NCBI GenBank assembly: GCA_023245335.1
Contig: JAHFKK010000001.1
Location: forward strand, 491,282-555,281
From: Candidatus Gottesmanbacteria bacterium
Lineage (GTDB): Bacteria > Patescibacteriota > Microgenomatia > UBA10105 > UBA927
Length of the DNA stretch: 64,000 nt
Reading direction: 5' to 3'
Notes under the pieces: generated by a model
Told to the model about the DNA's origin: nothing
Databases searched by the model: none
Seen by the model: only the letters and a program-made list of their open reading frames with translations
Position numbers and translations under genes: made by a program
In this document: positions 3,488-6,907 of the stretch, piece after piece
Layout: each line of letters begins with the position of its first letter
Numbering within the stretch: the stretch's first letter is position 1

Positions 3488-3684
3488 TGAATTAATACAC
3501 ATAGAATTCCCTCCATCCACCAAATGCTCACGAATGAAAACTATTCTTCATTCGCAGGAAAAGGGTGGATGGAAAGATTAAAAATCGGAAATAGTAGTAA
3601 TGAATATAAAAGTAACTCGCAAGTGAGTTAATCTAGTTTCCACTAAGCTCTAAGTCGATAAAATGATTCAAGGAAAAGACCTTG

Positions 3685-3730
3685 AAAAAAAGGGGGGACC
3701 CAGCAAGATTGCTGGAGCTGGGTCCTCACC
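3685..3730 (-). terminator. Intrinsic terminator for the 71-aa small ORF
   Basis: Minus strand ggacccagc-loop-gctgggtcc followed by C run and T7. Confidence 0.75.
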
Positions 3731-3962: not shown

Positions 3963-4080
3963 CAGGTTTGCTCCTCATTTGATTTGTCTTGCTCGGATTT
4001 GGGTTTTACTTCGTACTGCGGTGTTCGTTTGGTTATTGGGTCATAAAGATTGTATCTCCTTCTTAATTTAATTTTTGAAC

Positions 4081-4116
4081 AAAAAGAAAGACAGAAGGAT
4101 AGGAATTTCTGTCTTT
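4081..4116 (-). terminator. Intrinsic terminator downstream of the 88-aa ORF
   Basis: aaagacagaa (4087-4096) / ttctgtcttt (4107-4116) 10-bp stem with minus-strand CTTTTT tail. Confidence 0.6.
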
Positions 4117-4198
4117 ATCCTTGGTCAAAACTCTATTTGTAAAAGAGCAACAACGCCTTCTCACAGCTAGTTCTTAACAGTTCGCTAAAAAACAGCAC

Positions 4199-4465
4199 TT
4201 ATTTTTCGGGATCAGTGTCTGTAATCAGATGTTTCATGGCGTTAAATGTTTCTATTATTCTCTTGCCACGCTTAGCTTGGTTATGTGCCTTCCCTGATTC
4301 AAATGAGTGAGTCAGTCTTAATATGACACTGTCTGCGTCTCTACGAGGAACTCTGGCTGCACGATAACCTCGCCGTAGCCCTTCGAGTGCTAATTCGACA
4401 CCGTCCTTGTCCGCAACATTTCCATATAGCGCGGCTTCCTCAAATATTTTTTCTGCGTTTACCAT
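4199..4465 (-). CDS. Hypothetical protein (88 aa)
   Basis: ATG start, globular helical-looking composition, terminator-like hairpin downstream; no family recognised. Confidence 0.55.
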   Translation of the reverse strand: MVNAEKIFEEAALYGNVADKDGVELALEGLRRGYRAARVPRRDADSVILRLTHSFESGKAHNQAKRGKRIIETFNAMKHLITDTDPEK

Positions 4466-4628
4466 ATGATTTGTTTATAGAGTCAGTTAGTGTGACTGAG
4501 CTCGGAAACAATACCGCGATTTTTTCATTGTTTTTTCCGCGGAATGTCGTTACTTCCCATAAACAGGGAGACTTAGTAAATAATGATTTGGTTTCTACAG
4601 ATTGATTTAGTTCCATACGTATTCCCAT
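4440..4628 (-). CDS. Possible small hypothetical protein (58-62 aa; MGIRMELNQ...)
   Basis: ATG right after the leader terminator; overlaps the next ORF by 26 nt; no clear RBS. Confidence 0.3.
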   Translation of the reverse strand: MGIRMELNQSVETKSLFTKSPCLWEVTTFRGKNNEKIAVLFPSSVTLTDSINKSYGKRRKNI

Positions 4629-4629
4629 T

Positions 4630-4768
4630 AAAAAACCCCGCTTGGTGCGGGGCTCTTTGTTGGTCTTACTGAAAAATTTCTTTATGCAGCAGTCTCCACA
4701 AGAGCCCCTTCCGCCTTTCGGAGGGTAATAAGGGCCATAATGTGGACGTACTGGCTTTGCATAAGAAA
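4630..4768 (-). ncRNA. Unknown structured RNA (sRNA or attenuator/riboswitch-like leader)
   Basis: Starts ~6 nt after a consensus promoter; ~90-nt irregular hairpin capped by a GAAA tetraloop; then CCCCGC/GCGGGG-T6 terminator. Confidence 0.65.
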
Positions 4769-4773
4769 AATAT

Positions 4774-4803
4774 ATTATATGGATCAAACTGGCATATTGT
4801 CAA
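4774..4803 (-). promoter_or_regulatory. Consensus sigma70 promoter
   Basis: Minus strand TTGACA (4803-4798), 18-nt spacer, TATAAT (4779-4774). Confidence 0.85.
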
Positions 4804-4826
4804 GAGTTAAATCGGGAGATATACTT

Positions 4827-4990
4827 GCGGTGACGAAAGAATACAGCGCAGATGGCCTGACAAGCCGGAGCTTCCTGGTGTCGTAACCGGGACGGGAGAG
4901 CCCGTAACCACTCAGAATGAGAAGTAAGTAAGGTGGCACCACCCCCGATCAACATCGTGGGTCCTTATATCAGGGAACGGTGCCTTTTTT
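4827..4990 (+). promoter_or_regulatory. T-box riboswitch (Asp specifier GAC) upstream of aspS
   Basis: GCGGTGA...GGAGC K-turn-like stem I base; GAC at 4859-4861; CCCGTAAC stem IIA/B-like box; TAAGG-TGGCACC T-box pairing with CCTTA (4963-4967); terminator GGCACC/GGTGCC + T6. Confidence 0.88.
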
Positions 4991-5023: not shown

Positions 5024-6907
5024 ATGCGAACACTCACAACTGATACGGTTAGTAAGATCGGTGAAGAAGTGACACTCCAGGGCTGGGTGCTGGCACGGCG
5101 CGATCACGGCAAGATCATGTTCCTGGATTTACGTGACCGCAAAGGCATCGTACAGCTGGTCGGCAACAAAGCCCTAGGAGATGCGCGGGCGGAAGATGTC
5201 GTTGAGGTCGCGGGACTCGTCAAAAAGCGGCCGGAGGCAATGGTAAACGAAAAAATCGCAACCGGCACTGTTGAAGTCGAGATACAAAAGCTTACCGTCA
5301 TTTCCAAAGCCCACGACCTCCCGTTTCCTATAGATACCAACGGCTACGAAGTGAACGAGGAGATACGGAGTAAATACCGGTATCTCGACTTACGGCGTCC
5401 CCGCATGGCGAGAAATATCAGATTACGGTCAAAAATGGTCGCATTCATCCGGAATTTTCTTCTTACCCAGGACTTCGTCGAGATAGAAACGCCGATGCTC
5501 ACCAAAACCACTCCGGAGGGAGCGCGGGATTTTTTGGTGCCCTCCCGGCTTCAGCCCGGCAAGTTTTATGCGCTGCCGCAGTCGCCGCAGCAATATAAGC
5601 AGCTTCTTATGGTTGCGGGTATGGAGCGGTATTTCCAGATTGCCCGGTGTTTCCGCGATGAAGATCCGCGACGGGATCGCGCCTACGGTGAGTTTACCCA
5701 GTTGGATTTGGAGATGTCGTTTATCACCCAAAATGATATTTTAGAGCTCATCGAGGGCATGTTTACCCGATTGGTAAAGGAATTGTTCCCCGACAAGCAC
5801 ATTTTGAAATCTCCGTGGCCGAGACTTGCCCACAAAGATGTCATGAAAAAGTACGGTACGGACAAACCGGATCTTCGGGAGCACAAGGATGATCCTGACG
5901 AGCTTGCATTTTCCTGGACCGTCGATTTTCCGCTTTTTACGGAACAATCGGAAGCGGATTTCTTTTACGGATCCGGCAAGGCGAAATTTGCGCCCAGCCA
6001 CCATATGTTTACGGCGCCGCATCCGGATGACATCCCGCTTCTCGATACGGATCCGATGAAGGTGCGCGGGCTTCAGCACGATCTTGTCCTCAACGGATTT
6101 GAAGTAGGAGGGGGGAGTATCCGTATCCATCAACCGGAGGTGCAGACAAAGGTGTTTGACCTCATCGGGTTTACCCAGGAACAAAAGCAGGAGTTCGCGC
6201 ACATGCTGACCGCATTTTCCTACGGCGTGCCGCCCCATGGTGGGATTGCGCCCGGCATAGACCGGTTTCTCATGGCGCTTCTCGGGGAGCCGAGCGTACG
6301 GGAAGTCATGGCGTTTCCGACGTCCGCATCAGGAACCACAAGCGTCATGGATGCACCGAGTACTGCCGCCCCGGAACAGCTTTCCGAACTCGGGATAAGC
6401 GTGAAAGGGCCGATCTTGGGCAAATCAGGCGGGGAAGGTGTATACGCGAGGATTATCGAAGACTTGAAGTCTGCAGGAGTCGCGTACGAGCCATACGAGC
6501 ATGAAGCGGTCCGGACTTCGGAAGAAGCCGCCCGGATACGAAATACGCCCCTCCGCGAAGGCGCGAAAGCGCTGGTTTTATACGCGGATGACAAGCCGGT
6601 CATGGCGGTCGTTCCGGGTGACCGGAAACTGGATACTAAACTGTTTAAAGCGACATACCAGGTGAATGATCTCCGGATGGCGACACCGGAGGAAGTGGAA
6701 AAAGTAACCAATGTGCAAATCGGTGCGGTACCGCCTTTTGGTCACATATTCGGCATACCGATTTATGTGGATGCGGCGATCCGTGAAAATTCCAGCGTTT
6801 CATATAATGCCGGGATGCATACGCGTTCCGTGCGTATGGCGGAAAAGGATTATGAGAAGGTAGCCAAACCCATTGTCGGAGCATTTTCCAAACTTACCAA
6901 TGCCTAA
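5024..6907 (+). CDS. aspS: Aspartate--tRNA ligase lacking the GAD insertion, fused to a C-terminal YbaK/ProX (YeaK-like) domain
   Basis: RRDHG, YRYLDLRR, PEGARDF, LPQSPQ, FRDED, PPHGGIAPGIDR; C-terminal GAKALV...GAVPPFG...YNAG. Confidence 0.95.
   Translation: MRTLTTDTVSKIGEEVTLQGWVLARRDHGKIMFLDLRDRKGIVQLVGNKALGDARAEDVVEVAGLVKKRPEAMVNEKIATGTVEVEIQKLTVISKAHDLPFPIDTNGYEVNEEIRSKYRYLDLRRPRMARNIRLRSKMVAFIRNFLLTQDFVEIETPMLTKTTPEGARDFLVPSRLQPGKFYALPQSPQQYKQLLMVAGMERYFQIARCFRDEDPRRDRAYGEFTQLDLEMSFITQNDILELIEGMFTRLVKELFPDKHILKSPWPRLAHKDVMKKYGTDKPDLREHKDDPDELAFSWTVDFPLFTEQSEADFFYGSGKAKFAPSHHMFTAPHPDDIPLLDTDPMKVRGLQHDLVLNGFEVGGGSIRIHQPEVQTKVFDLIGFTQEQKQEFAHMLTAFSYGVPPHGGIAPGIDRFLMALLGEPSVREVMAFPTSASGTTSVMDAPSTAAPEQLSELGISVKGPILGKSGGEGVYARIIEDLKSAGVAYEPYEHEAVRTSEEAARIRNTPLREGAKALVLYADDKPVMAVVPGDRKLDTKLFKATYQVNDLRMATPEEVEKVTNVQIGAVPPFGHIFGIPIYVDAAIRENSSVSYNAGMHTRSVRMAEKDYEKVAKPIVGAFSKLTNA

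Follow-up and report, generated by a model that had tools for sequence, protein, structure and literature searches.

A probable leader-peptide transcription attenuator with putative isoleucine and leucine control codons precedes an orphan gene next to aspS in Candidatus Gottesmanbacteria

A short minus-strand region next to the aspS gene of a Candidatus Gottesmanbacteria genome of 1.55 Mb, located in the 64,000-nucleotide stretch of DNA that we analysed (the window), very probably encodes a ribosome-mediated leader-peptide transcription attenuator (Table 1). We also favour, with less assurance, the view that this attenuator is specific for isoleucine and leucine. A promoter, a short upstream open reading frame (uORF) and three mutually exclusive helices (protector hairpin, antiterminator and intrinsic terminator) are evident from the sequence and conserved. 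As modelled by folding, a leader carrying no ribosome, or a ribosome at the stop codon, would form the terminator and release an RNA of ~140 nt, and a ribosome stopped at Arg15 or at any earlier codon would leave segment 2 free to pair with segment 3, leading to read-through. The stall would come from slow decoding of Ile (ATT) and Leu (CTT/CTC) codons when branched-chain amino acids are short; read-through would then extend into the 58-aa orphan ORF1 and perhaps also into the two small ORFs behind it. The switch could thereby serve as a starvation response in an organism apparently unable to make branched-chain amino acids. The first-pass annotation of this DNA had proposed a riboswitch/attenuator or a small RNA. 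The terminator/antiterminator attenuator proved to be real and conserved, and the idea of a riboswitch or small RNA with an unspecified ligand gave way before the uORF and the unconserved core: a reading frame with coding bias, an aptamer core that is not conserved and the cognate codons of sister leaders together point to the translating ribosome, and not a ligand, as the most likely sensor.

Table 1. Features of the attenuator locus and of related loci (positions are those of the window unless another sequence is named)
Feature	Position	Strand	Basis or remark
Sigma-70-type promoter, TTGACA-N18-TATAAT	4774..4803	-	12/12 consensus
Divergent promoter-like site towards aspS	4797-4825	+	-35 overlaps the -35 of the leader promoter (4803-4774)
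Leader uORF, 26 codons (MQSQYVHIMALITLRKAEGALVETAA)	4682..4762 (ATG 4762, TAA 4682)	-	Start 11 nt past the -10 box
Predicted stall window, codons 8-14 (IMALITL)	4721..4741	-	Sister calibration
Protector/pause hairpin (segments 1:2; irregular hairpin of the first-pass annotation)	about 4768-4677	-	Folding, covariation
Antiterminator 5' strand (segment 2)	4696..4708, core 4708-4700	-	Duplex energy, compensatory change
Antiterminator 3' strand (segment 3)	4649..4663	-	Overlaps the 5' arm of the terminator
Intrinsic terminator (segments 3:4) and U tract	4630..4657	-	Folding, covariation
ORF1, first controlled gene, 58-aa orphan	4440..4616	-	W...F-P motif, predicted beta-hairpin
ORF2, 88 aa	4199..4465	-	Overlaps the end of ORF1; may be co-transcribed
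ORF3, 71 aa	3747..3962	-	Cys/His (zinc-ribbon-like) motif; possibly end of the same transcript
aspS	5024-6907	+	Pfam tRNA-synt_2 fused to a C-terminal tRNA_edit (YbaK/ProX-type) domain
Proteins of 720-750 aa near the old rel slot	L138:3812-6037, L131:3764-5932, L133:7072-9333		Degenerate HD_4 (one with ACT)
L052, Phe-rich attenuator	G000:C12:881091-881177	+	Between an rplT-like gene and a small ORF with an AlaX-like gene
L056, His-containing leader and terminator	G000:C12:948467-948531	+	Before an aminotransferase gene and hisS; weak antiterminator duplex (-7.3)
Met leader, 15 codons (two Met), and terminator	G000:C12 about 346900-347030	-	Upstream of a 93-aa ORF and a metG-like gene
L051, 19-codon Arg-rich uORF and terminator	G000:C12:122776-122890	-

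The leader promoter, described as perfect in the first-pass annotation, is indeed so: TTGACA (4803-4798) and TATAAT (4779-4774) are separated on the minus strand by an 18-nt spacer. Only six perfect pairs of these boxes with spacers of 16-19 nt occur in the whole genome, and in each of the 18 genomes of the genus the promoter matches the consensus at 11-12 of 12 positions. Its -35 region overlaps that of a promoter-like site directed towards aspS, and the two may therefore compete. The leader lies back to back with aspS and, on its other side, is followed by small ORFs that converge on recJ. An aspS T-box had been placed in this arrangement; the divergent aspS is present, but Rfam gave no T-box match in the window, and only a T-box-like motif (about 4850-4990, plus strand), judged against the T-box consensus, precedes the gene. 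Similar motifs precede ileS- and valS-type genes (G000:C12:725570-725673 and about 175140). The distance from the leader to aspS is just 66-110 nt in several relatives, which makes the leader independent of the aspS T-box.

A DNA search of 41 genomes gave matches in 19. A covariance model built from 13 sequences (the source and twelve relatives) matched, at E<=0.01, 61 of the 81 genomes of the family, including all 17 other genomes of the genus; of 151 genomes sampled from the class, 31 had a match (a tally that includes the unpublished G144). We examined 70 of the 95 family matches and 22 further class matches. Forty-seven loci are syntenic with aspS and/or recJ as judged by tblastn context, corresponding to 45 family genomes plus G108 and G151, which belong to two other families; L111 was dropped from this set as not divergent, and L048 and L060 were added on the basis of recJ.

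The ~90-nt irregular hairpin reported earlier is present as far as its body is concerned, but its apical CCUCC/GGCGG stem is imperfect and the GAAA loop is not conserved; an SRP-like GNRA hairpin was dropped as a candidate because of this loop. The terminator was found as announced, with a CCCCGC/GCGGGG stem at 4652-4636 followed by U6 to 4630 on the minus strand. The 9-nt alternative pairing was also recovered: GGGGCUCUU (4708-4700) is complementary to AAGAGCCCC (4657-4649), which covers four of the six bases of the terminator 5' arm, and the pairing runs to about 13 nt with bulges. The 146-nt leader folds with a z score of -5.31, equalled by none of 200 shuffles. The antiterminator duplex reaches -21.3 kcal/mol, versus -11.1 +/- 2.5 kcal/mol in shuffles (none of 100 as good), and it is better than all 100 shuffles in 42 of the 47 loci (median z -4.95). 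Of the antiterminator cells in the alignment of 13 sequences, 93% are paired, with two compensatory changes, one of them in the source genome. For the protector and terminator, 88% of cells are paired among 46 aligned matches and 20 of 24 pairs have changed on both sides, a count that comes from an alignment fitted to the covariance model; the terminator helix (helix 5) is paired in 100% of cells, with compensatory changes in seven of its eight pairs. The collection of homologues and the examination of covariation, proposed at the outset, indicate a switch conserved with compensatory changes.

The very strong promoter and the terminator would together yield an abundant RNA of ~140 nt, and the downstream genes differ between genera, as would be expected of a stand-alone small RNA, a small-peptide gene or a type I antitoxin in which the alternative pairing is non-regulatory; rnTrpL/peTrpL, an attenuator RNA and peptide that reportedly act in trans, would be a parallel. 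This explanation is nonetheless very unlikely, given that the antiterminator is conserved with compensatory change, that the C-terminal frame of the peptide is not conserved and that ORF1 lies right behind the terminator, starting 14 nt past the U tract with no promoter-like site called in between, and is found at no other place in the 81 family genomes.

The uORF, which had been missed in the first-pass annotation, spans the hairpin, with its start and stop codons in the two outer arms. No Shine-Dalgarno sequence is visible and the 5' leader consists of a few bases only; translation of the 26 codons is what we infer. In all 47 loci, the first ATG or GTG located 5-34 nt past the -10 box (a range chosen after the data were seen) opens a frame that stops between the start of the antiterminator and the terminator, versus 6.3 expected from dinucleotide shuffles; these counts overstate significance, since the covariance model behind the loci was trained on sequences containing the uORF ATG and stop, and since the loci are kin and not independent. 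Among the 18 genomes of the genus, pairwise single-base codon differences in the uORF core are 155 synonymous and 199 non-synonymous in frame, versus 80/379 and 19/401 out of frame. Eight of the 47 loci, without anchor, were left out of the coding-bias counts, and of the two possible frames in G060 the incorrect one was probably chosen. G004 has ATA in place of the first ATG and retains an ATG in the same frame two codons further on. In the twelve relatives, promoter and leader are present together with an ORF that has a common H-x-x-x-L-I-x-L-R core, past which the frame shifts between genomes and the stop moves, as expected if constraint on peptide or codons is confined to the stall region and the remainder is constrained as RNA. 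These loci share a conserved uORF that overlaps the leader and stops close to the antiterminator.

No Rfam family matched the leader at gathering score, and a search relaxed to E<=10 (best E 1.5) yielded no family assignment, which agrees with the earlier failure to assign it to a known RNA family; the SRP, 6S, T-box and Phe/Thr/Leu leader models gave no gathering-score match to it either. The best scores near the element are 15-17 bits, against cut-offs of 50-70, and are driven by the terminator; the only Rfam match in the whole window is a tRNA. A default-off terminator with a competing helix, a covarying hairpin and a nearly invariant AUU in the internal loop of the protector could also be read as a metabolite-binding riboswitch or a protein-binding leader, the hairpin being the aptamer and the ORF incidental. 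We consider this highly improbable, not only on account of the Rfam result. The relatives' alignment reveals no conserved aptamer core: neither the sequence nor the length of the apical loop is constant, most of the hairpin's 5' strand is free to vary, and conservation tracks codons and switch helices. The frame is present in 47 of 47 loci with coding bias and, in sister leaders, the content of the hairpin loop changes with the cognate amino acid.

The effect of ribosome position was modelled with ViennaRNA by masking a ribosome with an assumed footprint of 13 nt. In the source genome, the terminator has a predicted probability of 1.0 both in the naked RNA and with a ribosome at the stop codon; with a stall at Ile12, the antiterminator reaches 0.66 at equilibrium and 1.0 before the 3' arm of the terminator is made. 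For 46 loci (the 47 syntenic loci minus G051), full-length equilibrium folding predicts the terminator in 38 naked, 15 stalled and 46 stop-codon leaders. In the co-transcriptional snapshot, a check suggested with the original annotation, sequestration of the terminator 5' arm is predicted for 31 naked leaders, for all 46 with the ribosome stalled at Ile and for one with the ribosome at the stop codon. Fifteen stalled leaders would thus still terminate at equilibrium and 31 naked snapshots are already sequestered, which indicates that timing matters. The modelled switch flips between A-site offsets -12 and -9; in silico, and with the footprint assumed, where the ribosome stands determines which helix forms.

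Other leaders that share this RNA layout (sister leaders) carry cognate codons before pheS, cysS, hisS, metG, lysS, tyrS, DAHP synthase and ilvA genes. The Phe-rich ones lie between rplT-like genes and pheS or AlaX-pheS fusions; Cys-rich sisters precede cysS and Phe/Tyr-rich ones DAHP synthase; Tyr/Phe-rich sisters lie upstream of a racemase and/or a Tyr/Trp synthetase, a His-rich one upstream of an aminotransferase and hisS; the Lys sister precedes class I lysS and the Met sister metG-type genes. In G118, an Ile/Leu/Val-rich leader of this layout precedes a small ORF and a full ilvA. The source genome itself (G000) has at least four attenuators of one layout (aspS-linked, Phe, His and Met) and T-box-like leaders, and thus appears to monitor tRNA charging gene by gene. 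The G022 counterpart of the AlaX-like gene behind its Phe-rich leader L052 is an AlaX-domain/PheS fusion. The Arg-rich L051 lies directly upstream of tRNA-Ala(TGC) and an apparent 23S rRNA and may be an attenuator before stable-RNA genes. ARAGORN called a tRNA-Ile with anticodon TAT (G000:C12:323858-323930) and no tmRNA in the assembly.

In 18 sisters retained for calibration (four others were dropped, no terminator or uORF having been found by the script, and the ilvA leader was excluded), 68 of 74 cognate codons are located at -33 to -13 nt from the antiterminator. The corresponding stall window, seven codons long, of the aspS-linked leaders contains Ile in 44 of 47 cases and Leu in 42, versus 2 of 18 sisters for each; outside the genus of the source genome, these figures are 26 and 25 of 29. 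At least two Ile, Leu or Val codons are present in 46 of the 47 leaders and in 2 of the 18 sisters. Of the 64 leader Ile codons, 54 are ATT, versus 287 of 1278 in the long ORFs of the window, where ATC is commoner; the ATT at 4729-4727 is identical in all 18 genomes of the genus and sits in an unpaired loop of the protector hairpin. This enrichment, the ATT bias and the unpaired position of the ATT codon lead us to infer that the control codons in the stall window are those of an Ile/Leu sensor. The U-rich codons may in part be selected to pair with the G-rich strand. Thr was rejected as the main signal, since its codons are present in the window of 31 of the 47 leaders but also of 10 of the 18 sisters and probably belong to the shared hairpin. 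Arg (CGA) is a possible signal in the genus, yet it is found in the window in only 8 of 47 leaders. G051, one of the three leaders without Ile, has two Phe codons and a prephenate dehydratase gene downstream. Changes to candidate regulatory codons of Streptomyces coelicolor ilvB had no effect (PMC1262725), so that a leader rich in branched-chain codons need not be a codon sensor.

The stall window codes for several amino acids (I, L, T, F, N, M, V), unlike the one-amino-acid runs of the Phe, Cys and His sisters, much of the family retains the spaced L-I-x-L-R pattern, the targets are orphan and variable instead of cognate, and in the folding model the switch can be opened by a stall at any of codons 1 to 15. 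These features would suit a general sensor of ribosome slowing, responding to any of several amino acids, to translation inhibitors or to nascent-peptide arrest on the hydrophobic L-I-x-L-R motif, a reading that we regard as possible, albeit rather unlikely. It fits poorly with a codon bias towards ATT/CTT/CTC in place of free synonymous use, with the variable distance from start to motif and with the amino-acid specificity of sister leaders of the same layout; moreover, the scan of downstream genes revealed no transporter, ABCF, regulator or other family of the resistance type. Specificity for isoleucine and leucine remains the reading that we prefer.

The gene that this putative Ile/Leu attenuator would control, ORF1, belongs to a family present as a single copy in 21 of the 81 family genomes, among them every one of the 18 in the genus, and always located behind the leader. 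Two large protein searches returned 24 and 32 relatives, labelled 'Patescibacteria group bacterium'; no Pfam/NCBIfam family, no relative in viral contigs and no Atlas match was found. Its predicted structure (mean pLDDT 70) would be a beta-hairpin, with no fold match at E<=0.001. No ORF2 homologue was seen among the downstream ORFs of other loci; ORF3 is related to ORFs at six other loci, and its Atlas matches were all under 0.9. A hairpin (4070-4128, minus strand, -19.8 kcal/mol), apparently also present in G002, lies between ORF2 and ORF3. A strong terminator-like hairpin with a U tract (3685-3730, minus strand), which is probably the end of the read-through transcript, follows ORF3, with a second hairpin at 3667-3686. 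In other genera, unrelated small ORFs, often Cys/His-rich, occur behind the leader. A small orphan ORF often precedes the cognate gene in sister attenuators too, suggesting that such leaders attract small orphan ORFs. No gene for making, importing or charging Ile or Leu is present downstream in the syntenic loci examined, where orphan small ORFs are followed by convergent recJ, and a hidden cognate gene further downstream was sought in vain in 17 wider regions. The ileS gene has a T-box-like leader of its own. In the source genome, ilvD gave no match (14 of 14 controls positive) and KARI_N only a weak partial one, so that there is seemingly no ilv operon to control.

Classical amino-acid leader-peptide attenuators are those of E. 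coli trpL, hisL, pheL, pheM-pheST, thrL, leuL and ilvL. The leader described here resembles them in its uORF over segments 1-2, its alternative 1:2, 2:3 and 3:4 helices, its U-tract terminator and its control codons just upstream of segment 2, and the position of a Phe-rich sister between rplT and pheS recalls E. coli pheST. It differs from them in having no Rfam leader-family match, almost no 5' leader, no Shine-Dalgarno sequence and a mixed Ile/Leu window, and in targeting an orphan small ORF instead of a biosynthetic or synthetase gene. In Staphylococcus aureus, a Leu-rich attenuator is said to control ilv-leu biosynthesis. In Listeria (Rli60, PMC5864092) and in Corynebacterium (ilvB-II, PMC10272879), uORFs rich in branched-chain codons likewise act on a terminator/antiterminator pair to control ilv-leu biosynthesis. 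Unlike these three systems, the present leader has no ilv gene behind it. It works like an ilv attenuator and stands outside the ilv, leu and thr leader families because it lacks a cognate gene. Ribosome-stalling attenuators reportedly also govern stress and resistance genes, such as bmrCD and vmlR of B. subtilis and mycobacterial whiB7. Our leader shares with these uORF-controlled premature termination before a non-biosynthetic gene, but no transporter, ABCF or regulator lies downstream and its codon bias points to specific amino acids. In the open literature searched, no description of leader-peptide attenuators in Patescibacteria was found. The mechanism is a textbook one; what is added here is the sister calibration, the assignment to Ile and Leu, the family of ORF1 and the genomic relation to rel.

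Many members of the class have rel immediately upstream of aspS, in the same orientation. With 11 of 14 controls positive, a RelA/SpoT synthetase domain was detected in 59 of the 151 class genomes and in none of the 81 genomes of the family; HD_4 was not found in the source genome. HD_4-only remnants occur near the rel slot in G041, G054 and G055, and the three 720-750 aa proteins of L138, L131 and L133, without RelA_SpoT synthetase match, may be Rel proteins that have decayed or strongly diverged. The small ORF of the attenuator faces a convergent, intact rel in G108 and G151. The idea that the attenuator replaces Rel is weakened by its adjoining an intact rel in G108, G151, G102 and G222, and by the Rel-less family genomes G046 and G057, which have no attenuator at aspS. 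In 60 aspS upstream regions, chosen non-randomly from 139 matches, a divergent leader of the same layout with varied codons was present in 7 of the 58 from outside the family (six by the model at E<=1, one by eye among 19 inspected); the two family genomes of this set have none. Divergent leaders with varied codons and orphan ORFs at aspS make this slot a hot spot for attenuator-led orphan genes, and a link between the attenuator and the loss of Rel is suggestive at best. It is conceivable, though in our estimation unlikely, that the strong promoter and the Ile/Leu attenuator form a ppGpp-independent starvation switch for lineage-specific small proteins, which would be dormancy, ribosome or host-attachment factors in a family without detectable ppGpp synthetase, the attenuator occupying the slot held by rel in other class members, where read-through transcription would enter rel in antisense orientation.

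Little regulation is usually attributed to Patescibacteria, whose cells are uncultured or dependent on a host. It is unusual for an amino-acid-type sensor to control a small orphan protein in a family in which no RelA/SpoT synthetase domain was detected; the switch offers a testable handle on starvation sensing in Patescibacteria, and the unannotated 58-aa ORF1 protein is a candidate starvation-response factor.

Some aspS-recJ intervals contain a second, tandem leader-peptide attenuator (L004:748-874, minus strand, in G009, where it is rich in Ile/Val/Leu; L137/L093 in G021). In addition, an element of ~50-150 nt that starts like TGGTT..TTAG..AGTGAATT directly follows many attenuator terminators (L039, L040, L043, L046, L047, L060, L061, L065, L071, L075, L082 and L086) and also precedes the Met leader of the source genome (G000:C12, about 347100); it is perhaps a small mobile repeat.
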